IMG/VR virus record: IMGVR_UViG_3300045988_163643
Span: 32,001 to 96,000 of that record
Source of the DNA: a virus
Strand: one strand, 5' to 3'
DNA: 64,000 nucleotides
The notes beneath the pieces are model-generated. The model worked only from the letters and a program-made list of their open reading frames with translations, searched no databases and was not told the origin of the DNA. Position 1 is the stretch's first letter; the number at the start of each line of letters is the position of its first letter. Made by a program: the position numbers and the translations under genes. Below, piece by piece: positions 50,044-61,989 of this stretch.

Positions 50044-50385
50044 TATGCTATACGCCATGCACATATTAAAATCATCTTTACTGAAATCTATTATTATAAA
50101 ACTACCATTTTTATTATTATGTTTATACCATGTTGTGCCTGTTAGTCCATTTAGCCATGATTTTTTACCTTTTTTTTCGCCTTCTAATATTTCAAATACT
50201 ACTTCATTGTTACTGTATCGAATTCCTTTTCTCTTGCATATGTTTTTAGTTAATGAAACATATTTTTCATTTTCCATATTTAATAAACTTTCAGCTTTTT
50301 CTAGGTTAACATATCCATTTAAAACTAATTTTGATATACTCTCTCTTAATTCTATCATACCTTGTTTTTTAGTTATTTTATTCAT
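50035..50385 (-). CDS. hypothetical protein
   Basis: 116-aa ORF with TAGGAGGG SD. Confidence 0.55.
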   Translation of the reverse strand: MNKITKKQGMIELRESISKLVLNGYVNLEKAESLLNMENEKYVSLTKNICKRKGIRYSNNEVVFEILEGEKKGKKSWLNGLTGTTWYKHNNKNGSFIIIDFSKDDFNMCMAYSIED

Positions 50386-50419
50386 ATTATACCCTCCTAA
50401 AATTTTAATTATTAACTAT

Positions 50420-50447
50420 ATTATAGTTTAAGAGCTATATAAAGTCA
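50420..50447 (-). promoter_or_regulatory. class III cassette promoter
   Basis: TTGACT-16-TATAAT. Confidence 0.55.
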
Positions 50448-50466
50448 ATAAATATTTTAATTTTCA

Positions 50467-50514
50467 TGAAAGTTTTTAACTTTCAGGAATAACTGAGGAT
50501 TAATTAAAACCCTC
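50467..50514 (-). other. paired stem-loop boundary cassette
   Basis: hp1 50467-50485. hp2 50495-50514 has the same sequence as 47663-47682. Confidence 0.6.
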
Positions 50515-50532
50515 TATATTAGATAATACTAT

Positions 50533-50730
50533 TTAAAAGTTTACATTTATAACCTTATATTCTAGTATTAAACCTTTTCTACTTGTTATTTCAGCATGTA
50601 CTTTATAACCTTTTCTCTCTATTATAAAGCTTTTAGAAAAATTACTATCTTTAGTTTTTCCACTCATAGAAATTAACTTGAAACCGTCATTTTGTAATTC
50701 TTTAAAAAAATCATTTTCTTTCATTATCAT
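50533..50730 (-). CDS. hypothetical protein
   Basis: 65-aa ORF with TAGGAGGG SD. Confidence 0.5.
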   Translation of the reverse strand: MIMKENDFFKELQNDGFKLISMSGKTKDSNFSKSFIIERKGYKVHAEITSRKGLILEYKVINVNF

Positions 50731-50763
50731 ATTATACCCTCCTAAATTTTATTTATTAACTAT

Positions 50764-50792
50764 ATTATAATATAATGCTTATATAAAGTCAA
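50764..50792 (-). promoter_or_regulatory. class III cassette promoter
   Basis: TTGACT-17-TATAAT. Confidence 0.6.
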
Positions 50793-50846
50793 TAAATATT
50801 TTAATTCTCATGAAAAATTTTAACTCTGAGCAACTGAAGAAGGATT

Positions 50847-51182
50847 TTATTTTCCTTCTTCTACTTCTTTATTAAATAAGCTTTTTATTTTTTTAGAAAA
50901 CTTTTTATCCTTTGTCACGTCATAAAATCTAAATTCATTATAAAAAGTATATTCTTTTATAGCTTCTAAATGCGAATTAATCGCTTGAGTTGTAGAACTT
51001 GTATCATAATTACAATTATCAACTATTATTTTATTTTCAAGAGTATCAATAATCATAATGATATTTCCATGATATGTTAAATAGTAACTATCTTGAAGTT
51101 TTTCCATTTTATGATTACCTACTTTAATCATAATATCACCATTCATAATAGATTTAAATATTTTTTCACTATATTTTCTCAT
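50847..51182 (-). CDS. hypothetical protein
   Basis: 111-aa ORF. Ends EEGK with the stop in a hairpin loop. Confidence 0.55.
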   Translation of the reverse strand: MRKYSEKIFKSIMNGDIMIKVGNHKMEKLQDSYYLTYHGNIIMIIDTLENKIIVDNCNYDTSSTTQAINSHLEAIKEYTFYNEFRFYDVTKDKKFSKKIKSLFNKEVEEGK

Positions 51183-51218
51183 AATAAAAACCCTCCTAAA
51201 TATTCATTTATTAACTTC

Positions 51219-51247
51219 ATTGTAACATAATGTTTATATAAAGTCAA
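51219..51247 (-). promoter_or_regulatory. class III cassette promoter
   Basis: TTGACT-17-TACAAT. Confidence 0.6.
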
Positions 51248-51304
51248 TAAATATTTTAATTTTTACCAAAAGTTTTTTAAACTTTCAGTTACTGAAGAAG
51301 GATT

Positions 51305-51523
51305 TTATTTTCCTTCTTCTAATTTTTCATTTATATTATTCAACCAATCAAATATTTTGTCTTGTTGGTCGTATAAATCATTATTGAAAGGGTACTGCTC
51401 TGTAATTAATTCATTTATATTAATATTGTTTTCCCTTTCAGCTTTTTCTAATTGCATTGTAAAAATATATAAACTTTCCTTCAATTCTGAAATACTATTC
51501 ATTAATTCTTTTTTATTTTTCAT
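51305..51523 (-). CDS. hypothetical protein
   Basis: 72-aa ORF. Ends EEGK with the stop in a hairpin loop. Confidence 0.5.
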   Translation of the reverse strand: MKNKKELMNSISELKESLYIFTMQLEKAERENNININELITEQYPFNNDLYDQQDKIFDWLNNINEKLEEGK

Positions 51524-51556
51524 ATTATACCCTCCTAAAACTCATTTATTAACTTT

Positions 51557-51585
51557 ATTGTAGTATAACTATTATATAAAGTCAA
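51557..51585 (-). promoter_or_regulatory. class III cassette promoter
   Basis: TTGACT-17-TACAAT. Confidence 0.6.
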
Positions 51586-51602
51586 TAAATATTTTAATTT
51601 TC

Positions 51603-51654
51603 ACAAAAGTTTTTTTAACTTTTGTTACTGAAAAAGAGAATTAATTCTCTTTTT
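51603..51654 (-). other. paired stem-loop boundary cassette
   Basis: hp1 ACAAAAGTT/AACTTTTGT at 51603-51625. hp2 at 51631-51654. Confidence 0.6.
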
Positions 51655-51961
51655 CTTTTCTAAAACGGAATTCAATTATATTTTTATCTCTATGATTTTT
51701 TATTAGATTTATTTCAGCTTCAGCTTGTTGGTCGTTGTCATACATGAATAACTTGTCAATGTCTGTTCTGTGGTTTAAACAATAAACTAAAAAACCGACT
51801 CTTGTTGCACCTTCATATTGAAAATAAATTAATTCATTTTCAAGATTAATTCTAACTTTAGTTATCCATATTTTTTCATTTATTTTCTTTTCATATTTTA
51901 TCATGTCGATTATTTTATCCATATTCTTTAATAATTCACTTCTTATTTCTTTTTTATTCAT
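51641..51961 (-). CDS. hypothetical protein
   Basis: Track ORF 51641..51991 starts in the leader. True ATG is 51961 after TAGGAGGGTTTTGT. Confidence 0.55.
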   Translation of the reverse strand: MNKKEIRSELLKNMDKIIDMIKYEKKINEKIWITKVRINLENELIYFQYEGATRVGFLVYCLNHRTDIDKLFMYDNDQQAEAEINLIKNHRDKNIIEFRFRKEKEN

Positions 51962-51988
51962 ACAAAACCCTCCTAAAAATTTCATTTT

Positions 51989-52046
51989 CAAGATTAATTT
52001 TAATTTTAATCTTGTAACTGAAAAGGGGAAACTTAATTCCCCTTTT
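51989..52046 (-). other. paired stem-loop boundary cassette
   Basis: hp1 CAAGATTAA/TTAATCTTG at 51989-52014. hp2 AAAAGGGGAA/TTCCCCTTTT at 52021-52046. Confidence 0.6.
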
Positions 52047-52047
52047 C

Positions 52048-52230
52048 TTAAAGTGTATCTAAAAAATCATTAACCATTGTAACTTCTTCAGGAGATAATA
52101 ATATCTCCATATGGCAATAATTAGAGTTAATATAACTATTTTCAAAAGTTATATTAATTTCATGTAAAAAGTTCATTAATAAATTAGCTTCTTTTTTACT
52201 TAATTCAATATTATAATATTTTTTATTCAT
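52048..52230 (-). CDS. hypothetical protein
   Basis: 60-aa ORF with TAGGAGGG SD. Confidence 0.5.
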   Translation of the reverse strand: MNKKYYNIELSKKEANLLMNFLHEINITFENSYINSNYCHMEILLSPEEVTMVNDFLDTL

Positions 52231-52261
52231 ATATAAAACCCTCCTAAAATTTTAATTATTA

Positions 52262-52290
52262 ACTATAATATAATCATTATATAAAGTCAA
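52262..52290 (-). promoter_or_regulatory. class III cassette promoter
   Basis: TTGACT-17-TATAGT. Confidence 0.55.
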
Positions 52291-52355
52291 TAAATATTTT
52301 AATTCTCATGAAAAATTTTAATTCTGAGCAACTGAAGAAGGAAAAACCCTTCTTC

Positions 52356-52595
52356 TTATAAATTTTCAACTTCTATGCTTATAATTGTATTACAGTTACA
52401 AGTTATTAAGAATCCTACTTTACTTTTTAAAGACTTTACAAATAGTCCTTGAAAATAATCACCTTTACAATATGAATTTTTAGGACTATAGCCTATAGTA
52501 TTCATAAAAGGTATTATTCTTTTTTCACCTTTTGCAATATTTATTTCTTTTATTTCCTCTTCATTAAATTTTTCCATTAATTCATAATTTTTCAT
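52356..52595 (-). CDS. hypothetical protein
   Basis: 79-aa ORF with TAGGAGGG SD. Confidence 0.5.
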   Translation of the reverse strand: MKNYELMEKFNEEEIKEINIAKGEKRIIPFMNTIGYSPKNSYCKGDYFQGLFVKSLKSKVGFLITCNCNTIISIEVENL

Positions 52596-52673
52596 ATATA
52601 AAACCCTCCTAAATTTTTAATTATCATGAAAGTAATTAACTTTCAGCAACTGAAGAAGGAAAAACCTTTCTTC

Positions 52674-52853
52674 TTAGTCAATGAAAAAATCAATTGAATT
52701 TTTAGAAAATAATACATTAAATTTATGAAAAAATTCAATATCTATTTGAGAATTTTTTTCATTGAAAAATGATTGAATATTATAATCTTCAAAATATACT
52801 TTTGTATTTACTACTATTGTTAATAATAATATTATATTTATTATTTTTTTCAT
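52674..52853 (-). CDS. hypothetical protein with N-terminal hydrophobic segment (59 aa)
   Basis: Hand-translated MKKIINIILLLTIVVNTKVYFEDYNIQSFFNEKNSQIDIEFFHKFNVLFSKNSIDFFID with TAGGAGGG SD. Confidence 0.5.
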   Translation of the reverse strand: MKKIINIILLLTIVVNTKVYFEDYNIQSFFNEKNSQIDIEFFHKFNVLFSKNSIDFFID

Positions 52854-52884
52854 ATATAAAACCCTCCTAAAATTTTAATTTATT

Positions 52885-52933
52885 CAGTAATTTAAATTAC
52901 TGTAACTGAAGAAGAAAATTAAATTTCTTCTTC
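52885..52933 (-). other. paired stem-loop boundary cassette
   Basis: hp1 CAGTAATTTAAATTACTG at 52885-52902. hp2 GAAGAAGAAA/TTTCTTCTTC at 52908-52933. Near-identical copy at ~53745-53795. Confidence 0.6.
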
Positions 52934-53713
52934 TTCCATACTTTCTATATTATTTACTTTATTTTCAATAATCAAAAAGAATTCGTTTGCTATTGATTCA
53001 AAAGTTGCCCATACTATTTCAGTATAATTGAATTTATTGATAGATATTTCATCTTTTTCAATTAATGTATTAAAGTAATTTTGTATTTCATCTAAATTAT
53101 TTATGAAGAATTTTTTTATATTAGTATTATATTTTAACTCAAATATTGCTTCAGAGCAACCATTTTTTCTAAATTCATCTATGAATTCTTTAACATGATT
53201 TAAGCATTCAAAAGTCTTAATATATTTTTCTAATATATCTAATACTTCATTTTTTAAATTACTTTTACTTCTTAATTCTTCTTCCATTGTAATTAATAAA
53301 GTGTCCATTTTTTTATTATTGTCTATGTCTTCTTCCATGCTCTCGACAAAATTTATTTCATCTTCTATTTCATAGAAAAATTCTTTTGCTATGAATTCAA
53401 AAGTTACGGAAGCTATTTCAGTATAATTGAATTCATAGATAGATATTTCACCTTTTTCAATTAATGTATTAAAGTAATTTTGTATTTCATCTAAATTATT
53501 TATGAAGAATTCTTTTCTATTATTATAACGCATTAATTCAGGTATTACACCTATTAAGCTGACACCTTCCATAAAGTCCCTAACTTCTTCTAAATCTTTA
53601 CATTCTTTAATATGATTTATTAACATATCTAATACTTCATTTTTCAAATTACTTTCTTCCTTCATGTCTTCTATACCATTTAATAACATTTCTATTTTTT
53701 CACTATTTCTCAT
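52919..53713 (-). CDS. tandem two-domain member of paralog family A
   Basis: 264 aa. Two copies of the family A domain, with near-identical DNA stretches at ~53055-53110 and ~53455-53510. Confidence 0.6.
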   Translation of the reverse strand: MRNSEKIEMLLNGIEDMKEESNLKNEVLDMLINHIKECKDLEEVRDFMEGVSLIGVIPELMRYNNRKEFFINNLDEIQNYFNTLIEKGEISIYEFNYTEIASVTFEFIAKEFFYEIEDEINFVESMEEDIDNNKKMDTLLITMEEELRSKSNLKNEVLDILEKYIKTFECLNHVKEFIDEFRKNGCSEAIFELKYNTNIKKFFINNLDEIQNYFNTLIEKDEISINKFNYTEIVWATFESIANEFFLIIENKVNNIESMEEEEI

Positions 53714-53776
53714 ATAAAACCCTCCTAAAAATTTAATTTATTCAGTAATTTAAATTACTGTTACTGAAGAAGAAAA

Positions 53777-54133
53777 TTAAACTTCTTCTTCTTCCATTGT
53801 TTCAACTTCATTATATATTATACTTGTCATATATTCAAAAGCTAACCAACTTAAATTATTTGCGTTTACTTCAAAATCAGGACTTAAATTATCTTTAAGT
53901 TGATTGTAAATGTCGAATATTTCTTCTATATGTTTAATGAAGAAACATTTTGTTTCATTAAAGTATATTAATTCAGGCACTGTACCACTAATACAACCGT
54001 AATTCATAACATCTTCTAAAAATCCTTTTTCTACTTCATAATTTTCTATATTGTTTAAGATTATATCAATAACACTATCCTTTAATTCGCTTTCTCCATA
54101 TAAATTATTTAATAATTCACTATATTTTTTCAT
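53777..54133 (-). CDS. acidic protein, paralog family A
   Basis: 118 aa. See 49588..49953. Confidence 0.6.
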   Translation of the reverse strand: MKKYSELLNNLYGESELKDSVIDIILNNIENYEVEKGFLEDVMNYGCISGTVPELIYFNETKCFFIKHIEEIFDIYNQLKDNLSPDFEVNANNLSWLAFEYMTSIIYNEVETMEEEEV

Positions 54134-54249
54134 AATAAAAACCCTCCTAAAAATTATAAATTTTATTCAGAGCAACTCAAATATCAATTTTGAATTACTG
54201 TTACTGAAAAAGTATAGGACTTATAAAATCCCTTGTTTTTTCTATATTC

Positions 54250-54582
54250 TTATTCTTCAATTTTAAAATTCTTTATCTCAAGTCCATAATTGACTTGAGA
54301 CTTTCTATTTGTGTATTTTTTAACTTTTGCCCTAAATGTCAACTTTTGTCCTTCTTTAATGTTTTCCTTAAATATTTTCTTTGTAACACTACTTATCATG
54401 TCACAAAGACAATGACAACATATAAAATCATTGTTTTGATATATATTGTTTATCAATGCAACTTTTCTACACCCTCTTTTTTCAATTCGGTTAAAAGTTC
54501 CTTTGAATTCGACAATACTATCATTTAGTTTTTCAAGTTCTTTTCTATATTCATATCTTCCGTTTTTAGAATTAATATACAT
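54250..54582 (-). CDS. first gene of the leftward early region, hypothetical
   Basis: 110-aa ORF with AAGGGGGA SD. Cys-rich centre FICCHCLCD. Confidence 0.55.
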   Translation of the reverse strand: MYINSKNGRYEYRKELEKLNDSIVEFKGTFNRIEKRGCRKVALINNIYQNNDFICCHCLCDMISSVTKKIFKENIKEGQKLTFRAKVKKYTNRKSQVNYGLEIKNFKIEE

Positions 54583-55047
54583 TTAAAATCCCCCTTTTTT
54601 TAACAAACAAGGGATTTTATAATTCCTATACCTTTTCCTATAACTGAAAAGGAAAAAATCCTTTTCCGTTTTTTTTAGGAGGAGGGAACATATTTAATTA
54701 TATAATAGGATTTTTATCATTGACCTCCTATGCCCTTGTAAATAGTCAATGACTGTTAAGTACTAAAACCTAACTTTTGATTATTACCTTATAACCCTCT
54801 GAGCACTTTTCAAAAGTTCCGACTTAAAAAGTATGAGTTCGTAAGTACTTATTAGAATTAATCTAACAGTTTACCTATATAACCTTTGATAATAGGGTTT
54901 TTATCAAAAGCACCTTTTAAGTTTTCCCTTTTGCCAGTTACCTAAAAGTTGTAAGATAATGCTTAATTCTATCAGGTGATATATTAAGCTTCTATTATAT
55001 ACCCTAAGCGTATAGCTTAAGGATTTTTTATTTCTTTTATTACCTTA

Positions 55048-55076
55048 ATTGTATCAGGTCTTTTATTTAATGTCAA
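55048..55076 (-). promoter_or_regulatory. early leftward promoter P1 of a tandem triplet
   Basis: TTGACA-17-TACAAT with an A/T-rich upstream tract. Confidence 0.65.
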
Positions 55077-55150
55077 GTACTTTTTAAAAATCTTTTAAAA
55101 CTTTTTAAGTAGCTCCTAAGTTGTTTTCCTAAGTTGTTATTTATACTTAT

Positions 55151-55179
55151 ATATTATCATGTCTTTTATCTAATGTCAA
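55151..55179 (-). promoter_or_regulatory. early leftward promoter P2
   Basis: TTGACA-17-TAATAT. Part of a ~100-bp tandem unit. Confidence 0.6.
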
Positions 55180-55249
55180 CTATTTTTTTTAAAAAACTTT
55201 TAAAACTTTTTAAGTGCTTTCCTAAGTTGTTATTTATTTTATTAACTTA

Positions 55250-55278
55250 ATTGTATTTAACCTCTTATCTAATGTCAA
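55250..55278 (-). promoter_or_regulatory. early leftward promoter P3
   Basis: TTGACA-17-TACAAT. Part of a ~100-bp tandem unit. Confidence 0.65.
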
Positions 55279-55467
55279 CTATTTTTTTTATGTTTTTTTA
55301 TGTTTTTTGTATACATTAAAATGAATATTGTATTTTTTATATTGTATACATTATTTTGTATATTGTATTTTGAATAATGAATTTTGTATATTGTTTAATG
55401 TATACAGTATACCTATACTCTTTTATATTGATTTTCAAAATTCATATTTCTATTTTATTTTTTTCTA

Positions 55468-55569
55468 ATATTGCCGTGTGACGTGATATAAGGCAATTTA
55501 AGGATTTTCAGAGCAGTTACTGTATAATTTATTCAATTGATTAATATATCCTCTTATATTGCCTTATAT
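55468..55569. promoter_or_regulatory. ATTGCC boxes upstream of rightward gene 1
   Basis: ATATTGCC (55468-55475), inverted GGCAAT (55492-55497), CTCTTATATTGCCTTATAT (55551-55569). Confidence 0.4.
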
Positions 55570-55596
55570 GGATACATGAAAACTTTTAAAAAATTA

Positions 55597-55624
55597 TTGA
55601 CATTAAATAAAGTTATGCTATCAT
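55597..55624 (+). promoter_or_regulatory. rightward promoter of 55668..55865
   Basis: TTGACA-16-TATCAT. Confidence 0.5.
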
Positions 55625-55667
55625 TATATTAAATATTAATAAAATTAAATAAAGGTGGTTGATTGAA

Positions 55668-55865
55668 TTGAAGAAATATAGTATAGAAATAAAAGGCAAT
55701 ATATGGACAAGAGAATTAATTATAAATATATGCAGGGAAAAATCAATTAAATATAATGTAACAGAGTTATTAAGTGGATTAAAATATTGTATGCAATTAA
55801 ATGATTTAGGCTTTTGGGACTATCATTATTTCAATAGACTTAAAAAAATAGAAGAGAAAAAATAG
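55668..55865 (+). CDS. small rightward gene (65 aa), hypothetical
   Basis: Track ORF is 55659..55865. TTG 55668 is 9 nt after AAAGGTGG. Own promoter 55597-55624 and terminator 55863-55890. Confidence 0.45.
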   Translation: MKKYSIEIKGNIWTRELIINICREKSIKYNVTELLSGLKYCMQLNDLGFWDYHYFNRLKKIEEKK

Positions 55866-55890
55866 TAGAGACTGCTCTGCTATTTTTTTT
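55863..55890 (+). terminator. terminator of 55668..55865
   Basis: TAGTAGAG-actg-CTCTGCTA (one G-U pair) plus T8. Confidence 0.6.
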
Positions 55891-55898
55891 ATTGTATA

Positions 55899-55916
55899 TA
55901 TGAATAACTGTTCATA
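55899..55916. promoter_or_regulatory. 18-bp palindromic operator, LexA(Cheo)-box-like core
   Basis: TATGAATAACTGTTCATA with core GAAT-AACT-GTTC. Confidence 0.5.
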
Positions 55917-56141
55917 TGTTTATATGTTTAATTGTATGCAATATACTATATAATGCATCATGTATACAATATAATATATCATGTATTGTTTATTATGTAT
56001 AGTGTATAATGTATGCAATATTATGCATATTGTATCTTGTATGCAATATATAATATACTGTATGTAATATTATGTATATTGTATTATATTAGTTAACTTG
56101 TAAACTATTATCATATTGATAATAAATAATACTTGACAAAT

Positions 56142-56153
56142 AAACAGTTGTTC
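56142..56153. promoter_or_regulatory. Cheo-box-like site (11/12)
   Basis: Reverse complement reads GAAC-AACT-GTTT. Sits just downstream of TTGACA 56133-56138. Confidence 0.35.
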
Positions 56154-56529
56154 TGTAATCGAACGTAGCATATTTTATAATGTTTGTCAACAGTTATTTT
56201 TAGCTAAAAAGTTTAGTATAAGTAAACAATGCAAGTGTGAAACCATTGAAAATACTATATTATCATATTGATAAATTTACAAATACTAAGAAAAAATCAT
56301 GACCCATTTAAATCGATTCTAAGAGGGCGAACAAAATCCCTCTTTATAGTTAATCCTTTATATGAAGTCACTCTATACAGAGCTTTAAAATCGACGGTAA
56401 AAGGTCGGTATATATTTTTAAAAAGGTGACTATACATTTTATTGTATGTAATATATTGTATACAATTTATTATCATAATGATAATATATGAATAGATATT
56501 CAGGTATTCATATATAGAATTGTATAACA

Positions 56530-56547
56530 TATGAATAACTGTTCATA
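56530..56547. promoter_or_regulatory. 18-bp palindromic operator
   Basis: TATGAATAACTGTTCATA. About 21 nt are identical to site 55899 with its flanks. Confidence 0.5.
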
Positions 56548-56571
56548 TGTTTAATTATTCAATCGTATTAG

Positions 56572-56599
56572 TTGATTTGTGAACTACTATCAATATGAT
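56572..56599 (+). promoter_or_regulatory. candidate rightward promoter followed by palindromic operator 56604-56621
   Basis: TTGATT-16-TATGAT. Confidence 0.4.
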
Positions 56600-56603
56600 A
56601 ACA

Positions 56604-56621
56604 TATGAGTGATTGTTCATA
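56604..56621. promoter_or_regulatory. 18-bp palindromic operator (variant)
   Basis: TATGAGTGATTGTTCATA. Confidence 0.45.
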
Positions 56622-56662
56622 TAATATGTATAATGTATACAATATAATGTACTATGTATACG

Positions 56663-56680
56663 TATGAGTAACTGTTCATA
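56663..56680. promoter_or_regulatory. 18-bp palindromic operator (variant)
   Basis: TATGAGTAACTGTTCATA. Confidence 0.45.
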
Positions 56681-56717
56681 TATTCATATATATACTGTAT
56701 AGTGTATAATGTTTATT

Positions 56718-56778
56718 GTATACAATATAATATACTATGTATGATATATTATGTATGTTGTACTATGTATACAATATA
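56718..56778. repeat. 61-bp direct repeat, copy 1
   Basis: GTATACAATATAAT..GTATACAATATA. 59/61 identical to 56837-56897. Confidence 0.85.
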
Positions 56779-56836
56779 ATGTATAGTGTACTATGTACTA
56801 TGTATGGTGCATGATATGTAGTGTACTATGTATGGT

Positions 56837-56897
56837 GTATACAATATAATGTACTATGTATGATATACTATGTATGTTGTACTATGTATACAATATA
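56837..56897. repeat. 61-bp direct repeat, copy 2
   Basis: See 56718-56778. Confidence 0.85.
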
Positions 56898-56898
56898 G

Positions 56899-56926
56899 TT
56901 GATAAGTGAACTATTATCAATATGAT
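56899..56926 (+). promoter_or_regulatory. candidate rightward promoter followed by palindromic operator 56931-56948
   Basis: TTGATA-16-TATGAT. Copy of the 56572 unit. Confidence 0.4.
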
Positions 56927-56930
56927 AACA

Positions 56931-56948
56931 TATGAGTTACTGTTCATA
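56931..56948. promoter_or_regulatory. 18-bp palindromic operator (variant)
   Basis: TATGAGTTACTGTTCATA. Confidence 0.45.
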
Positions 56949-56966
56949 CGTTCATATGATAGTATG

Positions 56967-56984
56967 ATAGAACAACTGTTCCTA
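56967..56984. promoter_or_regulatory. perfect GAAC-N4-GTTC (Cheo/LexA-box core)
   Basis: ATAGAACAACTGTTCCTA with the core at 56970-56981. Confidence 0.5.
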
Positions 56985-57094
56985 TGATGTTCTATGTTAG
57001 TAGAACATATGGTACAATAATCGAACTGCATAGAATTGATTGTAAGGCGTTTGCGTGATGTTCTTCTTATGTTACATCGTTGATAGTGTTCCTT

Positions 57095-57117
57095 CTCTTA
57101 TATTGCCTTGTATTGCC
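57095..57117. promoter_or_regulatory. ATTGCC boxes upstream of rightward gene 2
   Basis: CTCTTATATTGCCTTGTATTGCC, two direct TATTGCC. Confidence 0.4.
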
Positions 57118-57173
57118 TCATAAGGTTACATTGAAAAAATTAGTGTATTAGAGAAAAAATTTTCATAGGATTG

Positions 57174-57202
57174 TTGACACGGAAAAGGGTAACTGCTATA
57201 AT
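57174..57202 (+). promoter_or_regulatory. rightward promoter of 57240..57401
   Basis: Perfect TTGACA-17-TATAAT. Confidence 0.7.
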
Positions 57203-57239
57203 TATGTTAATAAAAGATAAATAAAAGGGAGTTGATAGT

Positions 57240-57401
57240 ATGAAGAAGTTATTATTTGTTTTGGTGATTTTAGGAGTTATGGTGATTTTTAAGGACTGCT
57301 TATTAATAGGTTTAATGGATATTGTTGATTTTGTGGGTAACTTGTTTAACTTGAATACCGTTGTATTAATTGACTTCTTAAATAATTTATATTATTTATA
57401 A
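57240..57401 (+). CDS. small rightward hydrophobic protein (53 aa)
   Basis: Hand-translated MKKLLFVLVILGVMVIFKDCLLIGLMDIVDFVGNLFNLNTVVLIDFLNNLYYL. AAAAGGGAG SD, perfect TTGACA-17-TATAAT promoter, 13-bp-stem terminator. Confidence 0.55.
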   Translation: MKKLLFVLVILGVMVIFKDCLLIGLMDIVDFVGNLFNLNTVVLIDFLNNLYYL

Positions 57402-57405
57402 GAGG

Positions 57406-57443
57406 AATAAGTGGGATATATTTTATCCCACTTATTTTTTTAT
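57406..57443 (+). terminator. terminator of 57240..57401
   Basis: 13-bp stem AATAAGTGGGATA/TATCCCACTTATT plus T7. Confidence 0.8.
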
Positions 57444-57688
57444 GAAATATGCTCAGGTGATTTTATGTATATTGTATGGTGTGTGGTGAATAGTGTATAC
57501 AGTATTTTTTATTATGTATAATGTATTGTTTATTGTATTGTATATTGTATTATGTATTGTATTATGTTTATTGTATAATGTATTGTATAATGTATAATGT
57601 ATATTATGTATATATGGTGATATAAAAGAATTTTATATATTTTTATAAAATATTATATTTTAAAAAGCCAGTGCTCTGTATAAAATTT

Positions 57689-57750
57689 TAGGGAATTTTG
57701 TGGGGAATTTTAGGGAATTTTAGGGAATTTTAAGGATTTTATAGGGGGAC
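57689..57750. repeat. 10-bp iteron array TAGGGAATTT
   Basis: GGGAA starts at 57691, 57703, 57713 and 57723, with degenerate units at 57733 and 57744 (spacing 12, 10, 10, 10, 11). Confidence 0.8.
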
Positions 57751-57780
57751 TCTGAAAATTTTGTGGGATATATAATAGGG

Positions 57781-57803
57781 GGTGGGTCGGGAAAAATCCC
57801 ACC
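57781..57803. repeat. GC-rich hairpin/IR
   Basis: GGTGGG-tcgggaaaaat-CCCACC. Confidence 0.7.
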
Positions 57804-57832
57804 AAGGATTTTATATGTACAGGATTTTAAAA

Positions 57833-57853
57833 AACAGTTCTTAGAGAACTATT
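57833..57853. repeat. palindrome sharing the AACAGTTCT half-site with IR 40476-40561
   Basis: AACAGTTCT-TAG-AGAACTATT. Confidence 0.7.
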
Positions 57854-58409
57854 TACAAATTCGACACGAAGGGGGTAGTTTATGTATAATTCGACAAAAT
57901 TCTACACAAATATGAGTCTAGTCCCTTTATCTACACACTATTAAATTTCATCAAAATATTATTAAATTTCACTAATATTTCATCAATATTAAATTTACAA
58001 GATTAATCATATATAAAAATAATACTCTAAAACGCACTATAAAAATACATCACATTGTATACACAACATTGTATACACGATTGTACATTACCACACCACC
58101 ATCCATACACCACCTATTCCCCTATAACAAGCAATGAAATAAAAAGGAGGGGGGTACTTTATGATAATATCAATTATCAAATCAATAATATCACTTCCCC
58201 TTATATACACTATCCCAATAAAATCCAATAAAAATAACTTAAAAATAACTATAAAAAACGTACTATTTTAAATCAATTTCAGTATATTTTTAATCAAAAA
58301 CATACCATTTTCGACCAATTTTGTTACATTTTTGTACCATTTTAACCTAAAATAATCATAAAATATACGATATACCATATAAAAAGTAATGTATCAAAAT
58401 CATATAAAG

Positions 58410-58454
58410 TTATCCACAATTTCAACAAAGTTATCCACAGAATAATGTGGATTA
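58410..58454. promoter_or_regulatory. DnaA-box cluster
   Basis: Perfect TTATCCACA at 58410-58418 and at 58431-58439. Inverted TGTGGATTA (8/9) at 58446-58454. Confidence 0.6.
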
Positions 58455-58681
58455 AAAATAACGATAAATCACGAAAATATTAATATGTCTATTTTTATAA
58501 TCCCTCAAATCTCATTTTTTAAAGGTAAATAAAAAAAATGTACGGTTAACCGAATAAGAAAAAATCCTACAAAAAATACATGGTTAACCGTACTCAAGAA
58601 ATTAAAACAAATAAAATACATGATTAATGATATATAAAAACGATATAACATTATTGATGCTTAAAAAGAGTAAAAAAATAA

Positions 58682-58699
58682 CCTACTTATAATAGTAGG
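58682..58699 (-). terminator. terminator of the late (tail-fibre) operon
   Basis: CCTACT-tataat-AGTAGG followed by AUUUUUUU on the minus strand, about 50 nt after the stop at 58750. Confidence 0.55.
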
Positions 58700-58749
58700 C
58701 TATCTTAATTTATCTTTTTTCTTACGCAATTGATTCATATTGTGTAAAT

Positions 58750-61700
58750 TTATTCACTTGTTGTAAAATCACCTGTTCCTAAATTATTATAATAAATCTT
58801 ATTTACAGTATCATACATACAAATAACATTAGCTTTAGTCTTTACAGGTATTAAGTCTAATATCTGTTGCCCATTTCTAGTTATTGTACAAGCATATAAT
58901 TTCATTGCACATTTTGTACTATTTTCACAACTTCCATTACTTGAATGTTGTCCGAATAAATATAAAGATAGTGTATTGTTGTCATTAAGTAATTGACAGT
59001 TATAAGTTTGACCATTGAATGATATTACTCTATTATTTAATGAATACTCATCAATATCATTAGAAATAGTTTCATCATAAGTGTTTGTGCTTACCATATC
59101 AATTCTATATTTATTATTAATAACTACTAATTGGCATCCCTGGTTCTCAAGACCATTACCATAAGCATCACCAAAAGGTATTGACGTTTTTATAAAGTTT
59201 AAAGGTTTAAATTTCACATACAAGCTATCTGTGTCAAAATTCAAAGTAACTCCAGTATCTATATATTGATTTCCATCACTTTGAATATAATTTAATTGAG
59301 TAAAATCATCTGATGTAATAGTACTTTTACAAGACACATTTATTACTATATCTCCGGTAACATTATTTATATTAATATTTCCTTGTGAATAAACTGTACT
59401 TGTAATATCAGTTCCACCCATAGTTACTGTTACTGTGTCATAAGTGCATCCACTGACAGGTGTGATTGTTGCACTATAAGACCCCCCTATTTTACAATAA
59501 GTACTATTGTTACTTGTTGTACATTTATTTAAAGTATTAACTACTTTTGCAAAAGTACCGTTTTTACTTGTTTCATATAAATACATTTTATTTAATTCTT
59601 CACTAGTTAAAACCCTATTATATATTTCATGTGAATAATAAATAAAGTTTACCCCTTCTCCTATTTTACCAATTATAAAATCAAGAGTGTTATCTGTAGT
59701 TAATGAATATCTATCATTTGTTCCTTCGTATTTTAATTCGCCATTCACATACACTTTACCACTATTCCCTTGTCTAGTCATTGCAATACTCATAAATCTA
59801 TCATATTTCATATCGCTTAAAGGATTATTACCCTCGTTTTCTCCATTTATGAACACAGGAGAAGTGACGCCGGTTTGCATAGCTTTCAATGACCATCCTG
59901 ATTCCGAAGCAGATTGATTAGCTCTTTTACCACATATAATGTGAGTAGCATTACTAAAACCGTGTACATTTATAATTACTGTAAAATCATTAGTTCCAAA
60001 ATTAAAATTATCACCAAAATTAATAGTTGCACTTGAATTTGTTAAATCTAAACCTCCCTTAGTCAATGTAGTTCCTATATAAGAACCTGTTCCAACAATT
60101 GAAGAATTTACTTTATCAACAATTTTATTTGTACTGAAATCATAATCTTCAACATCACAATGTCCTATTAGCCCTTGCGATACAAAACTATTAGATATTC
60201 CACTAACAGTAATATTACAAGTTGCACTTTGACTTCCACAAGTTGCAGTAATAGTACATTGTCCATTTGATGTAGGTGTCACAACTCCATTTTCAACAGT
60301 ACATATACCAGTAGGATTTGCTGACCAAATAACTTCGTCTGTAGTATCACTAGGAGTTAATGTAGCAGTTATCGTTTGTGGTGTTGTATCAGTAAATGTT
60401 AAAGTATTATTATTTAATACAATATTAGTACAAGGCTTATCTTCTTTAACTCCACTTACAGTAACATTACAAGTAGCAGTTTTAGTTCCACAAGTAGCAG
60501 TAATAGTACAATTTCCATCTTTAATCGGTGTTACAACACCTTTATTGACAGTTACTATACCAGTAGGAGTTACACTCCATGTAACTGTATCTGTTGTATT
60601 AGTAGGAGCTAATGTAGCGGTTAATGTTTGACTGTCTGTTGTTGTAAATGATAATGTTGTATTATTTAAAGTTATATTAGTACAAGCTACAGTTTCTTTA
60701 TATTTATTGTCTAAATAAGATATTCTTTGTTTAATCCACGTATACATACTATCAATATCATCTGTTTTATTAATTCTATTTGACCATTTACTTCTTTCTT
60801 TGGTTATATTTTCAGTCCCCCAAATTGATTGAAATGCTCTAAATTGATTTATAATCCTACTTACATTTATTGTCCCATTATTTCTTAATTCCCAATATCT
60901 TTGGCTTATTTCATTAAAATAATTACTATATAATTTATTCCATACTGGATTAGTCTTAGTATATTGACAATTAAGTAAATCTGTTGTAGGTTTGCTTGGA
61001 TGATAAGATATACCAGCATTTTGGAATAACCCAAATATTATGTCTAAATCATACCAGCACATATACCATTTTGACCCATCCCATGTAGCAATAGTCCAAT
61101 TGTTAATCATACTATCAGTTGCACAAGCTAAATCTGCAAATACCCAATAATTAATCGCATTTTGTAAAATTAGATGTTCCTCAAAATGTGCTTTAAAATC
61201 ACTATCACTTGAATTATTTATAAAATTTAGCAAATCAGTTAATTTACCTTGAATTTCTGATGTTTCAGTTCCATCACTTCTATATTCAAAATTAGATAAT
61301 ACTAGACTTCCTAAACCACTTCTATATACTATATTTGTTAATGGATTTTTTTTACTGTTCATTCCAAATAAATCATCATCCTGTTTTATATTAAGAGTAT
61401 AACACCCATTAAATTCTCCGTTTAAATATAAAATAACAGGCTTAGATTTTACTGTAATCGGAGCGTCTACTGGAAATGTAGTATTATCAAAATCCCACAC
61501 CATTTGTGCTCCTACAGAATTTCTTACCATTGAATAATCAGCATAATTACATTTTAAATGGTATGTGCTTGTAGCATAATCAAATATTTTTATTTTTTTC
61601 TTATTTCCTTCAACGTCTTTAAGTTTTAAACTTAAATTTTTATTAGGATATTGTAAACTTCCGCTACCTTGCCATGTGGTTGTTGATTTTCCTTGAAATA

Positions 61701-61989
61701 CTGTAGAACCATATTCATCAACATACAAAATATCTAATTGTACTGGATTAGTTTTGCTTATACCTGTAGTATCACCATCTAAATAAATTATTCCACATGG
61801 ATATGATTGAATTTTAGGTACTATACCATTCTCAACTTTCTTCGCAATATCTTTATATTGCGTATTAAGTTTGTCAACATCACTTTTAATATTATTTATG
61901 TCAGTTTTAATATTATCTAATCCTTCAATATTATTATTTGAATTCTCATTATTATTAATAAAACCAAATTTATTATCTTTATCAAACAT
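58750..61989 (-). CDS. tail fibre / receptor-binding protein: CotH-like domain, two Big_2 domains, LamG-like lectin domain
   Basis: 1079-aa ORF with CotH motif WTIATWDGSKWYMCWYDLDIIFG. Two Big_2 repeats (..TLTATLAPTNTTDTVTWSV..TITATCGTKTATCNVTVSG). A LamG-type region (FTVIINVHGF..GWSLKA..VYVNGEL). Confidence 0.8.
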   Translation of the reverse strand: MFDKDNKFGFINNNENSNNNIEGLDNIKTDINNIKSDVDKLNTQYKDIAKKVENGIVPKIQSYPCGIIYLDGDTTGISKTNPVQLDILYVDEYGSTVFQGKSTTTWQGSGSLQYPNKNLSLKLKDVEGNKKKIKIFDYATSTYHLKCNYADYSMVRNSVGAQMVWDFDNTTFPVDAPITVKSKPVILYLNGEFNGCYTLNIKQDDDLFGMNSKKNPLTNIVYRSGLGSLVLSNFEYRSDGTETSEIQGKLTDLLNFINNSSDSDFKAHFEEHLILQNAINYWVFADLACATDSMINNWTIATWDGSKWYMCWYDLDIIFGLFQNAGISYHPSKPTTDLLNCQYTKTNPVWNKLYSNYFNEISQRYWELRNNGTINVSRIINQFRAFQSIWGTENITKERSKWSNRINKTDDIDSMYTWIKQRISYLDNKYKETVACTNITLNNTTLSFTTTDSQTLTATLAPTNTTDTVTWSVTPTGIVTVNKGVVTPIKDGNCTITATCGTKTATCNVTVSGVKEDKPCTNIVLNNNTLTFTDTTPQTITATLTPSDTTDEVIWSANPTGICTVENGVVTPTSNGQCTITATCGSQSATCNITVSGISNSFVSQGLIGHCDVEDYDFSTNKIVDKVNSSIVGTGSYIGTTLTKGGLDLTNSSATINFGDNFNFGTNDFTVIINVHGFSNATHIICGKRANQSASESGWSLKAMQTGVTSPVFINGENEGNNPLSDMKYDRFMSIAMTRQGNSGKVYVNGELKYEGTNDRYSLTTDNTLDFIIGKIGEGVNFIYYSHEIYNRVLTSEELNKMYLYETSKNGTFAKVVNTLNKCTTSNNSTYCKIGGSYSATITPVSGCTYDTVTVTMGGTDITSTVYSQGNININNVTGDIVINVSCKSTITSDDFTQLNYIQSDGNQYIDTGVTLNFDTDSLYVKFKPLNFIKTSIPFGDAYGNGLENQGCQLVVINNKYRIDMVSTNTYDETISNDIDEYSLNNRVISFNGQTYNCQLLNDNNTLSLYLFGQHSSNGSCENSTKCAMKLYACTITRNGQQILDLIPVKTKANVICMYDTVNKIYYNNLGTGDFTTSE

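Follow-up and report, generated by a model that had tools for sequence, protein, structure and literature searches.

Location and conservation of the region

Within the 64-kb stretch of viral DNA that was analysed (the window), a 4.2-kb region separates the last late gene of a ~200-kb gut phage from its first early gene, and all genes run in one direction, away from it. To judge by its sequence, this region is a strongly conserved control hub that is almost without genes. Relatives comprise 10 loci (9 distinct sequences) in phage genomes of ~150–205 kb from human-gut and other metagenomes, with a single copy of the locus per genome. The region is colinear over its whole length at 77–80% identity in five IMG/VR genomes, and contains blocks at 97–100% identity; additional assemblies from ENA, NCBI and Logan share its architecture. 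Conservation in several blocks exceeds that of the flanking gene, the order and number of motifs are kept among relatives, and the motifs are confined to this locus. On the right side, the late gene is swapped between relatives and the region itself is kept; similarity stops at ~58650-58720, and the terminator of the tail-fibre (CotH/Ig/LamG) gene (58675-58706, minus strand, terminator scan) marks the right boundary. The control region proposed in the first-pass annotation is well supported, its conservation in related phages is borne out by alignment, and every motif class listed there was recovered in place and is non-random. Rather than a single element, the region is a conserved assembly of five parts: promoters with a leader RNA, mini-genes, an operator field, an A-tract/G-tract segment and a 400-bp DnaA block.

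No hidden protein gene was found in the region under any stop-codon recoding, in agreement with the earlier expectation that no conserved frame would appear under other genetic codes. The claim that no credible ORF of 60 aa or more is present needs qualification: a 77-codon ORF does exist at 56297-56530 (minus strand), but stops interrupt it in all nine distinct relatives. At 58271-58660 (minus strand), 130 codons lack TAA and TAG if TGA is read through. This frame was rejected as a gene owing to four in-frame TGAs, a low-complexity translation and the absence of codon-phase bias (15/19/16); the flanking genes use the standard code. Independent assembly of the region in at least 10 samples likewise argues against an artefact. 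Hidden or decayed coding sequence, or misassembly, is an extremely improbable explanation and is refuted for practical purposes. Because the conserved cores are neither RNA-structured nor coding, the constraint on them appears to act on the DNA itself.

By sequence, the phage belongs to a clade of ~150-205-kb, low-GC, unidirectionally transcribed gut phages that are distant relatives of phage-plasmids of the C. difficile phiCD211 type. It is probably a large, Clostridia-type, temperate phage: hints of a temperate lifestyle come from an Ant-like anti-repressor, three genes resembling tyrosine recombinases and the plasmid-prophage state of its closest described relatives. The tyrosine recombinases lie in tandem, and in two of them the N-terminal core-binding domain is that of MrpR, itself a recombinase. 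Searches of the 64-kb window turned up neither a repressor nor a ribbon-helix-helix (RHH) or LexA-like protein.

Early promoters and a structured leader RNA

Three tandem sigma-A-type promoters (55048-55278, minus strand; 10-11/12 matches in a promoter scan) face the early genes. As first described, they are leftward and of consensus type (TTGACA-17-TA(C/A)(A/T)AT), at 55278-55250, 55179-55151 and 55076-55048. Each is embedded in a repeat of ~100 bp that contains CCTAAGTTGTT repeats and, upstream, A/T-rich tracts, and an 82-nt repeat family (D6) covers them. The promoters are conserved in relatives, some of which carry a fourth copy, and none of the three is overlapped by a LexA box or palindrome.

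Downstream, folding and covariation define a ~460-nt structured leader RNA at the 5′ end of the early transcripts (54583-55045, minus strand), directly followed by the first early gene (110 aa, 54250-54582). Its minimum free energy is −126.3, compared with −87.2 ± 5.9 for shuffles (z = −6.7). Across 10 genomes, the fold comprises 131 pairs with 99% of cells paired, and compensatory changes are seen at 14 pairs (0–3 in slid controls, 0/500 shuffles). The fold also fits the minus strand (99.0%) better than the plus strand (92.3%). An Rfam search gave no match to this RNA, which is a new structured RNA; in the predicted fold, the final helix occludes the ribosome-binding site of the 110-aa gene.

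Every early gene carries a promoter cassette of its own. Virulent phages typically show this arrangement in host-takeover modules of the SPO1/T5 type, and it counts against a lysogeny-type switch; a lytic phage with terminal repeats fits it at least as well. The region could be a genome end with direct terminal repeats (DTR), either short as in T7 and phiCD211 or long as in T5 and SPO1. It would then contain the sites that terminase recognises and cuts, perhaps together with an injection-control signal comparable to T5 iss with its DnaA boxes, and the early promoters would lie just inside the first-entering end. The site between the last late and first early gene of a strictly unidirectional genome is consistent with this proposal, as are the adjacent small early genes with their own promoters, typical of host-takeover modules at ends. 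In phiCD211, a 378-bp DTR lies beside leftward early genes (PMC5557969). The untranslated repeat regions of T5 are conserved and ORF-free, with nested repeats, palindromes and DnaA boxes (bioRxiv 10.1101/866236); they are the closest precedent for the 4.2-kb region, and the earlier statement that the combination resembles no described phage region was too strong. In contrast, the sequence showed no similarity to the termini of T5-like phages or of phiCD211, and contigs from several samples cross the region with no recurrent break coordinate, although circular or DTR-collapsed assemblies would look alike. The LexA boxes described below and the recombinases suggest a temperate element, though one compatible with DTR packaging. 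Overall, a genome end is considered unlikely.

Two small rightward genes

The two tiny rightward genes noted previously (65 and 53 aa) are real as judged from their sequences, each with its own promoter and terminator, but one of them, at 65-68 aa, exceeds the 60-aa limit first given. The 65-aa gene (55668-55865, plus strand) is intact in 10 genomes, with a start codon that differs by genome (TTG, GTG or ATG), an in-frame 3-nt indel and a third-position bias of 15/11/22. Its promoter (TTGACA-16-TATCAT with TG, 55597-55624, plus strand, promoter scan) is preceded by TATTGCC boxes (55465-55575, plus strand) that are conserved in relatives. A hairpin between an A-run and a T-run (55855-55890), seen in the sequence and the terminator scan, probably terminates transcription in both directions. 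The product falls into 15 protein clusters at 75–97% identity, all confined to this clade. An AF2 model (pLDDT 77) predicts a soluble protein with a β-hairpin and three helices, and searches of Pfam, PDB and Foldseek gave no match and no detectable fold relatives.

The 53-aa gene (57240-57401, plus strand) encodes a hydrophobic (membrane) peptide and is also intact in 10 genomes; it has a third-position bias of 16/8/27 and was gene-called in independent assemblies. It has a 12/12 promoter (TTGACA-17-TATAAT, 57174-57202, plus strand, promoter scan) and a terminator (57400-57445, plus strand; inverted repeat I20, local z −3.8 to −4.7). Upstream lie TATTGCC direct repeats 10 bp apart (57095-57125, plus strand), seen in relatives as well; a BLAST cross-match indicates that this module and that at 55465-55575 are paralogous.

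The operator field

Read from its motifs, a ~2.3-kb stretch is an operator field composed of two candidate LexA boxes, two palindrome families and ~100 in-register GTATNNT heptads. Palindrome A, an 18-bp quasi-palindrome (TATGARTNNYTGTTCATA), occurs in five copies in a single orientation, all on the plus strand: 55899-55916 (TATGAATAACTGTTCATA), 56530-56547, 56604-56621, 56663-56680 and 56931-56948, with none outside the region. Motif counting gave 8 matches versus 0.94 expected (8 reached in 0/100 shuffles), and each relative has 5-6 copies. The five copies reported previously are therefore present, but they are asymmetric, the left half being GA(A/G)T, not GAAC. Palindrome B (TTATCA-N3-TGATAA; repeat families I19 and D9) lies at 56108-56122, 56260-56274, 56470-56484, 56587-56601 and 56914-56928; the fourth and fifth copies adjoin palindrome A and overlap promoter-like hexamers.

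The two GAAC-N4-GTT(C/T) boxes are found as annotated, at 56970 and, on the reverse strand, at 56142. Box 1 (GAACAACTGTTT, 56142-56153, minus strand) is enclosed by face-to-face promoter elements (56133-56190), with TTGACA at 56133-38 on the plus strand and 56190-85 on the minus strand. In 10 genomes, the −35 hexamers and the half-sites of the box are invariant, while the −10 varies among TAnAAT-like forms and the 4-bp spacer is variable (AACT/ACTT/GTTT). Box 2 (GAACAACTGTTC, 56970-56981), invariant in all ten genomes, shares a conserved segment (56950-57000) with an everted GTTC-N10-GAAC repeat; identity is 100% over 50 bp in a six-genome alignment, with a few changes past 56995 in the ten-genome set. 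Both boxes match the Clostridial LexA consensus, GAACnnnnGTTC/T (PMC4234289), and are candidate sites by sequence. The number of exact boxes in the window (5 versus 1.7 expected, 7/100 shuffles) is not significant by count alone. The proposed SOS-responsive switch is thus supported by these two boxes but not by the three early promoters, which lack one.

The heptamer arrays were confirmed by dominant repeat lags of 7/14/21/28. All on the plus strand, they comprise H1 (55296-55416, ~17 units, phase TATNTTG), H2 (55917-56091, 25 units in register, nnTGTAT), H4 (56622-56900, 6 + 30 units) and H5 (57464-57620, ~22 units with phase slips). H4 has the consensus G68 T97 A93 T73 n n T87 with no phase slip over 30 units, and most of the indels that distinguish relatives here span a multiple of 7. 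The region, 6.5% of the window, holds 15 of its 25 GTATAC sites, as counted before, and TGTAT occurs 66 times on the plus and 21 times on the minus strand. A terminator-like hairpin with a T-run lies inside a conserved core (56390-56420, plus strand). The arrays might be templates for non-coding repeat RNAs, acting as sponges or antisense regulators; one example would be a leftward RNA of ~280 nt that starts at the 56190 promoter, crosses H2 and ends at the bidirectional terminator at 55890. Flanking promoter-like elements, bounding terminators and the strong strand asymmetry agree with this idea. However, conservation within the region is lowest in the arrays, which fold no better than shuffles, Rfam gave no match, and the promoter geometry is short or weak (15-bp spacer; TACGTT −10), which makes repeat RNAs very unlikely.

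The A-tract/G-tract segment and the DnaA-box block

Beyond the 53-aa gene, repeat analysis identified phased 10-bp A-tract/G-tract repeats followed by a G-rich hairpin (57684-57810, plus strand). The repeats (AATTTTAGGG, five to six copies, 57684-57746) are the iterons of the first-pass annotation; the G5 motifs are likewise present, at ~57746, 57771 and 57874. The hairpin segment has z = −5.9 on the plus strand, and its G-runs are kept in relatives. The reported flip in strand composition near 57.7 kb falls here, with GC skew changing from +0.67 (57250-57749) to −0.25 (57750-58249). A promoter-like element (TCGACA-18-TATAAT, 57860-57896, plus strand, promoter scan; statistically weak) includes two TTCGACA motifs, the reverse of the Spo0A 0A-box TGTCGAA, and both copies are kept in relatives despite local rearrangement.

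The ten-genome alignment also revealed an almost invariant ~400-bp non-coding block (58250-58650), with 83-86% invariant columns per 100 bp over ~58283-58582; the neighbouring gene differs. Neither coding signal nor RNA structure was detected in it. The block contains three GTACYATTTT-type repeats, two GGTTAACC palindromes (58543-58552 and 58582-58590) and three DnaA boxes. The two perfect boxes, both annotated earlier (58410-58418 and 58431-58439), are the only two in 64 kb, and the third (58446-58454) is inverted with one mismatch. The geometry of these boxes is like that of bacterial oriC box clusters, recurring in two unrelated viral contigs and 35 bacterial genomes (18/35 adjoining dnaA). 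DnaA-trios are absent beside the boxes (the run is 2, compared with 7 for a Clostridium oriC used as control and a mean of 2.8 for background), and the block is therefore not an oriC-type unwinding module. No initiator gene was found near the block. The origin suggested earlier is thus half supported: the boxes are real, invariant and oriC-like in geometry, but DnaA-trios and a nearby initiator gene are missing.

These findings bear on whether the region is the plasmid-mode maintenance locus of a phage-plasmid. The DnaA block, nearby short repeats and phased bent DNA would form a DnaA-assisted origin, and the heptads and/or AATTTTAGGG repeats a centromere coated by a small omega/ParR-like protein, which may double as a transcriptional silencer. 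Besides the invariant boxes, the long in-register heptads and 10-bp phased repeats resemble the omega heptads and type II parC geometry of pSM19035 and R1/pSK41. The single copy per genome and the tandem recombinases with MrpR-type domains agree, and one-way genes leaving the region would be co-directional with unidirectional replication from it. Among described phages, the closest relatives are plasmid prophages that carry parM-like genes; the partition operon of phiCD211 adjoins its early/switch region. Against this reading stand the missing DnaA-trios, the heptad sequence (unrelated to WATCACW), the ends of phiCD211, which have no comparable arrays or DnaA boxes, and the absence of a large-scale GC-skew reversal across the region. 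In addition, the 64-kb window yielded no gene for Rep, ParA, ParM, ParB, TubZ or an RHH protein. Maintenance is consequently regarded as rather unlikely. Two further points favour a genome end: the invariant block is DTR-sized, and strand composition converges at 57.75 kb.

A multi-input early-control switch

The best explanation, offered tentatively, is that the region may be an early-control switch with several inputs (SOS and DnaA) at the late/early gene junction. In a quiescent state, as a carrier or a lysogen, the operator field would be bound by host LexA together with at least one phage-encoded repeat-binding protein, and the promoters embedded in it would stay silent. One candidate for such a phage protein is the 65-aa product, which might bind DNA or serve as a co-factor of LexA; a parallel for the latter is gp7 of GIL01, in which LexA and a tiny phage protein maintain lysogeny (PMC6182141). 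DNA damage would remove LexA, the operator-field promoters would fire and the balance would move toward the early leftward programme, with the leader RNA then setting the translation level of the first early gene. The DnaA boxes may serve as a readout of host replication status, or they may bring in DnaA to aid replication that phage proteins start. We infer the step from operator field to early transcription, since no LexA box or palindrome overlaps the early promoters. To our knowledge, transcriptional switches are all far smaller than a 4-kb field with ~100 heptads, and this counts against the switch. Finally, three motif families go beyond those first listed: the five TTATCA-N3-TGATAA copies, the TATTGCC repeats upstream of both small genes and the two GGTTAACC palindromes.

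A conserved, gene-poor region with a probable role in early control

The 4.2-kb ORF-poor stretch at 54583–58749, bounded by the start of a 110-aa leftward early gene (54250–54582) and the stop of a tail-fibre gene (58750–61989), is best supported as a multi-input early-control region. As read from the sequence and from comparison with relatives, it holds promoters, a leader RNA, two mini-genes, predicted LexA operators and a putative landing pad for DnaA. Because phage genomes are normally >90% coding, and because this stretch is better conserved than the neighbouring genes, a gene-poor region of 4.2 kb must concentrate cis-acting functions. Its main points of interest are a new structured RNA, exceptionally long in-phase heptad arrays and conserved host-factor sites.

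The first-pass annotation, which proposed an origin, an SOS-responsive switch or a genome terminus here, listed several classes of motif, every one of which is present and, wherever a test was possible, non-random. Three consensus promoters fire leftward as claimed. The five 18-bp quasi-palindromes (palindrome A, 55899–56948) share one orientation and are restricted to the region (8 matches versus 0.94 expected), and 15 of the 25 GTATAC sites of the window fall inside it. The 7-bp periodic arrays, the 10-bp AATTTTAGGG repeats and a flip in GC skew at ~57.75 kb were likewise recovered. Motif families beyond that list comprise a second palindrome (palindrome B, TTATCA-N3-TGATAA, 5 copies), TATTGCC direct repeats 5′ of both small genes and two GGTTAACC palindromes. 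The region is real and richer than originally described.

A conserved coding frame under another genetic code had been raised as a competing explanation. Whether the stop set is standard or has TGA, TAG or TAA recoded, no frame is nearly as long as the ORFs in a control stretch of coding DNA, and the two candidates, a long recoded frame and a 77-codon ORF, both fail. The former, a TGA-read-through frame at 58271–58660 (−), requires four TGAs to be read, has a low-complexity translation and displays no codon-phase bias; the latter, located in the conserved core, is disrupted in 9/9 distinct relatives. Scans of the region for tRNA and tmRNA gave no match. A very strong RBS-like AAAGGAGGGGGG is found 6 nt 5′ of the ATG that opens a 36-codon ORF (58146–58271). 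The start region of this ORF is kept; because its downstream indels are not always multiples of 3, it probably does not encode a conserved protein and could instead specify a short peptide or act as a ribosome decoy.

Conservation among related phages

Relatives were taken from five IMG/VR contigs of 147–204 kb, ENA scaffolds of 198–203 kb (human-gut metagenomes), one NCBI MAG contig and Logan contigs. All share a layout of 110-aa gene (−), ~1.1 kb, 65-aa gene (+), ~1.4 kb, 53-aa gene (+), ~1.2 kb and late gene (−). The whole region is colinear at 77–80% identity, and the order and number of motifs are maintained, so the suggestion that relatives might lack the region or show it unconserved is clearly contradicted. 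Conservation is mosaic. The heptad arrays and 57.95–58.2 kb vary most, with indels that are mostly multiples of 7, and the segments at 56.05–56.5 kb, 56950–57000 and 58.25–58.65 kb are conserved as well as or better than the flanking coding gene. The 50-bp block at 56950–57000 is wholly conserved in a six-genome alignment, and 58.25–58.65 kb is near-identical among genomes. The arrays and palindromes are absent from the rest of the window and from ~45 kb of other parts of the related genomes. Near and distant DNA searches of 50,697 phage records returned no match except one 110-bp A/T-rich hit, searches of plasmid collections with the region returned nothing useful, and no copy of the phage clade was found in GTDB representative genomes.

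Similarity to relatives ends at the late-gene terminator, beyond which the neighbouring late gene is swapped: some genomes carry a 1079-aa CotH/Ig/LamG tail fibre and others a GT92 glycosyltransferase with other genes. This exchange looks like a host-range cassette swap anchored on the conserved non-coding block. The breakpoint is located exactly at the terminator, at ~58650–58720 (window 58650–61989 compared with the relatives L011–L015 beyond the region). Individual relatives show further variation. One (L005, ~5700–6550, corresponding to window 57954–58139) has a ~670-bp insertion where the region varies most, and in another (L015, 6230–6463) the first heptad array is expanded and a 77-aa ORF is called inside it. 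In L030 (ENA ERZ28624220, RAMP15-1_SAMN03418264 scaffold_1, 197,740 bp), the 53-aa protein is identical to that of the window, and ORF lengths of 110, 65, 1079 and 547 aa follow in the same order.

Two small genes within the region

The 65-aa ORF (55668–55865) and the 53-aa ORF (57240–57401), the latter a hydrophobic peptide, are uninterrupted in 10/10 genomes, with changes concentrated at third positions. A consensus promoter and a terminator accompany each of them, and both are annotated as genes in independent assemblies. In the 65-aa ORF, the start codon is TTG, GTG or ATG depending on the genome, and a 3-nt indel is in frame. Both ORFs are real genes. No informative match was obtained for the 65-aa protein in Pfam, PHROGs or a PDB profile search, or with its AF2 model in Foldseek against PDB and BFVD. 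This model has a beta-alpha-alpha core without a sequence or fold match, and the idea of a ribbon-helix-helix (RHH) protein is unproven. YppF is the only name to recur, weakly, among the hits, as a CodY–YppF model (PDB 9a6f_B, a match of very low probability) and as a BFVD ‘YppF-like protein’ (a middling probability, TM ~0.5), the match being too weak to use.

Predicted LexA sites and in-register heptads in a putative operator field

GAAC/GTTC half-sites reach 14.5 per kb at 55.9–57.1 kb versus ~3.5 per kb outside the region. Two sites in this operator field, at 56142–56153 (−) (box 1) and 56970–56981 (box 2), fit the Clostridial LexA consensus GAACnnnnGTT(C/T) (PMC4234289). In box 1, the half-sites are fixed in 10/10 genomes and the inner four bases vary (AACT, ACTT, GTTT); the box is flanked by an invariant TTGACA and a −10-like hexamer, and a second element, TTGACA-17-TACGTT, faces it. 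Such a pattern is what a genuine promoter-associated LexA operator would be expected to show, and box 1 is a predicted site of this kind. Box 2 is invariant. The exact LexA-box count by itself is not significant, and the argument for LexA is therefore one of conservation pattern. Palindrome A, whose five copies have a degenerate left half (GAAT/GAGT) and of which only two fit even the relaxed GAACnnnnnTTC form, more likely represents phage-factor sites or low-affinity LexA sites. Together, palindromes B and A form composite units over promoter-like hexamers, with one extra unit in relatives.

A precedent for a LexA-based switch comes from phage GIL01, in which lysogeny is kept by host LexA on imperfect boxes with the help of a tiny phage protein, gp7, and LexA boxes, non-canonical ones included, are located within or 3′ of phage promoters (PMC6182141). 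Like the GIL01 switch, the region has LexA boxes at promoters, here predicted ones, together with a gene for a tiny protein and no evident CI-type repressor. It differs in that the main early promoters are without LexA boxes and in that the phage is ~13 times larger. The 65-aa protein, moreover, has no detectable similarity to anything in the PDB, which probably includes a gp7 structure.

The heptads have the consensus GTAT-n-n-T (G68 T97 A93 T73 n n T87) in register and are arranged in arrays of 17 units (55296–55416), 25 units (55917–56091), 30 consecutive units with no phase slip (56690–56900) and ~22 units (57464–57620), with lags of 7/14/21/28. Because the units are degenerate, strict TGTAT-heptad patterns fail even at the arrays themselves. 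The in-phase run is unusually long, and we infer a protein that reads the ~100 heptads, together with a silencing and induction logic for the region. A plasmid-mode origin or centromere is a live alternative that would be compatible with a switch role. In the pSM19035 omega and ParR-parC systems, contiguous short repeats (7 bp, or 10–11 bp) are set out in register as long arrays, with several clusters close to promoters, and the contiguous, in-register repeats clustered near promoters in this region are similar in kind. In contrast to omega, the unit is GTATNNT rather than WATCACW, and arrays extend to 30 units rather than 7–10. No homologue of omega, ParR, delta or ParM, no ribbon-helix-helix binder and no partner ATPase or actin was found in the window with Pfam and PHROGs. 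Among the 87 ORFs of the 64-kb window, no partition, initiator, repressor or CI-type gene was found.

At 57.68–57.81 kb, 10-bp phased A-tract/G-tract repeats are followed by a G-rich hairpin (+ strand, z = −5.9), and the strand composition flips there. This segment may be bent DNA, a terminator for convergent transcription or a site for a repeat-binding protein. Nearby, two TTCGACA motifs (the reverse of the Spo0A box, at 57860 and 57890) are retained in relatives despite local rearrangement. Reading them as Spo0A 0A-boxes is statistically weak (4 sites versus 1.45 expected; 7/100 shuffles).

A structured leader RNA precedes the early genes

Downstream of the tandem early promoters (three, or four in some relatives), a stretch of ~460 nt contains no ORF. 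The minus-strand RNA of this leader has a predicted folding energy of −126.3 kcal/mol versus −87.2 ± 5.9 for shuffled sequences (z = −6.7), and the consensus fold of the ten genomes contains 131 pairs with 99% of cells paired. Fourteen pairs are maintained via two-sided changes, compared with 0–3 in slid controls and with 0/500 column shuffles reaching 14; the alignment used for these tests also yielded the structure, which favours it in the controls. Six pairs are G–U in at least 9/10 genomes, and the opposite strand, given the same structure, pairs only 92.3% of cells, which identifies the sense transcript as the structured molecule. In the last helix, the Shine-Dalgarno of the 110-aa gene is paired with an upstream CCCTT. 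No Rfam family matched at its gathering score, the best sub-threshold hits (E 0.4–0.6) being to unrelated families. The leader is regarded as a new cis-regulatory RNA that would act in translation control, stability or antitermination, and it offers a covariation-supported structured RNA outside Rfam.

Several features of the adjoining early genes were also observed. An inverted repeat, TAGGAnTTATAAAATCCCTTGTTT, brackets the 110-aa first early gene (54216–54240 (+) and 54600–54632 (−)), and its right copy is part of the leader helix that sequesters the Shine-Dalgarno. The 110-aa protein itself is Cys-rich, with a CCHCLCD motif. Across 44000–54600, each small early gene has its own cassette of a TTGACT-17-TATAAT-type promoter, a hairpin and a strong RBS, AGGAGGGTTTTAT; this cassette is repeated at least 9 times, and the T-runs of the hairpins are on the + strand, antisense to the genes. 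By analogy, the one-promoter-per-early-gene layout resembles the host-takeover modules beside the genome ends of SPO1/T5-type phages. A DUF7222 paralogue family is present among the early genes (49606–49905, 52919–53713 and 53777–54133); the 264-aa member is internally duplicated, as seen in a 219-nt repeat at 52929/53328, and 49606 is joined to 53783 by a repeat of 300 nt.

A nearly invariant block carries a putative oriC-style DnaA landing pad

The segment at 58250–58650 is nearly invariant yet neither coding nor RNA-structured, which indicates that it is constrained as DNA. It contains the two perfect DnaA boxes listed in the first-pass annotation, at 58410 and 58431 (21 bp apart), which have no perfect counterpart elsewhere in the 64 kb, along with an inverted box with one mismatch at 58446; all three are invariant in 10 genomes. 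Their geometry, TTATCCACA-N12-TTATCCACA-N6-TGTGGAT, specifies 25 bases and also occurs in two unrelated viral contigs, within larger DnaA-box clusters, and in 35 of ~186,000 bacterial genomes. For 18 of these 35 matches, the geometry is ~125–430 bp from a C-terminal DnaA signature, which places it in the dnaA–dnaN spacer, the unwinding half of oriC. An example is a 22% GC Clostridium MAG, the oriC of which has (TAG)5-6 DnaA-trios beside the boxes. The recurrence of this geometry in the dnaA–dnaN spacer of distant lineages (bacterial loci L035–L069, e.g. L042 2600–2960), among them many Candidatus Binatia, Oscillospiraceae/Lawsonibacter and Clostridium, means that it may be worth attention as an oriC sub-module.

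The basal unwinding system (BUS) of oriC has one or more high-affinity DnaA boxes, often as a tandem pair, and is located beside dnaA/dnaN. DnaA-trios were scored as at least 3 trios (3′-GAT-5′ type, middle A) with a spacer of ≤16 bp from a box, and the Clostridium oriC locus served as the positive control. In the phage block, runs extend to no more than 2 at any box on either strand, versus 7 at spacer 13 in the control and 2.8 on average in the regional background. Neither dnaA nor dnaN is found beside the block, the flanks of which are the tail-fibre gene and phage early genes, and similarity to the Clostridium oriC is limited to the boxes. The missing trios exclude membership of the family of oriC-type unwinding modules. 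Because the boxes are conserved and the trio run is only 2, the phage appears to have kept an oriC-style DnaA landing pad, not an unwinding module. This arrangement is in keeping with auxiliary DnaA boxes at an origin of a plasmid or phage, with regulation that depends on DnaA, or with a role like that of the T5 iss, and is at odds with a self-sufficient origin of the oriC type.

The plasmid-mode origin can also be considered against P1 oriR, in which 17–22-bp iterons are beside DnaA boxes and an AT-rich stretch, with an adjacent or contained Rep gene. Here, the 10-bp repeats are ~650 bp from the DnaA boxes, three GTACYATTTT-type repeats are 80–150 bp away and the entire region is AT-rich, with no single stretch standing out as an unwinding element; an adjacent Rep initiator is absent among the window ORFs (≥55 aa) scanned with Pfam and/or PHROGs. 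The compact set of predicted LexA and DnaA sites belongs to an uncultured clade of large human-gut phages and could show how phages of this kind sense the state of the host and choose between quiescence and lysis.

Genome ends and comparison with known early regions

The closest described relatives are the ~131-kb C. difficile phages phiCD211/phiCDIF1296T/LIBA2945, which are extrachromosomal plasmid prophages and are distant (helicase identity 31–36%). A genome terminus is a second live alternative, again compatible with a switch role. Phage phiCD211 has 378-bp T7-type terminal repeats (PMC5557969). In its linear record, the ends have leftward small early genes with HTH regulators on one side and a partition operon on the other, and so the nearest relative studied has its terminus, switch and partition functions in one place. 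The phiCD211 ends contain no heptad arrays and no perfect DnaA boxes, and have no similarity to the region or its invariant block. Metagenome contigs run through the region without recurrent breaks, and the same would be expected of circular, concatemeric or DTR-collapsed assemblies.

Of the known systems, the untranslated repeat regions of the T5 left terminal repeat, which include the candidate injection stop signal (iss), are the closest in kind. These are ORF-free, better conserved than neighbouring genes, built of nested direct repeats, inverted repeats, palindromes and fixed-geometry DnaA boxes, and located beside small (pre-)early genes, with their function unsettled (bioRxiv 10.1101/866236). 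The region is comparably ORF-poor and conserved, with nested repeats, palindromes and DnaA boxes, and adjoins early genes. In contrast, it has no sequence similarity to the T5 regions, is a single 4.2-kb unit rather than pieces of 0.2–1.2 kb, has three DnaA boxes rather than eight, and carries LexA boxes, heptad arrays, two mini-genes and a structured leader RNA; the host is also of the Gram-positive anaerobe type. The comparison extends to Gram-positive-type phages the puzzle of why large phages keep non-coding DnaA boxes beside their earliest genes. In early regions of the T7/SPO1 type, tandem strong early promoters are found at the entering genome end. Similarly, three tandem host-RNAP promoters head a unidirectional genome here, and small early genes with individual promoters come next; the 460-nt structured leader, the 3.4-kb upstream operator field and the temperate-type genes are differences.

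A bolder reading, to which we assign a low probability, is that the region is a new, nearly protein-free nucleoprotein hub of a ~200-kb phage-plasmid. The ~100 in-register GTATNNT heptads, under a small clade-specific protein, would serve as both centromere and silencer, host LexA and DnaA (perhaps also Spo0A) would act as sensors, and the hub would be coupled to an undescribed class of 460-nt leader RNA that gates the early programme.

Gene content of the window

The GC content is 22–30% across the window, and essentially all of its sizeable ORFs are on the minus strand. Replication and transcription genes include a DnaB-like helicase, several sigma factors, an ATP-dependent ligase and a Sak4-like ATPase; an Ant-like anti-repressor, TnpB and the 1079-aa CotH/Ig/LamG tail-fibre-like protein are also encoded. 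One of the sigma factors is fused to a KTI12/AAA-like kinase domain. Cargo that is odd for a phage consists of an alpha-amylase-domain protein, this sigma factor–kinase fusion and an M18 aminopeptidase (9349–10404, 14940–16691 and 16681–18288). Three tyrosine-recombinase-like genes lie in tandem at 25566–28433, two with the N-terminal core-binding domain of the recombinase MrpR and one with a Phage_integrase catalytic domain, and they may have a role in multimer resolution or integration. An IS605-type TnpB (OrfB_IS605 and Cas12f1-like TNB) is encoded at 12911–14128 in the window and, in relatives, at 17734–18951 (L012), 19428–20198 (L014) and 18380–19486 (L030); this difference in position among clade members suggests an active transposable element in these phages.
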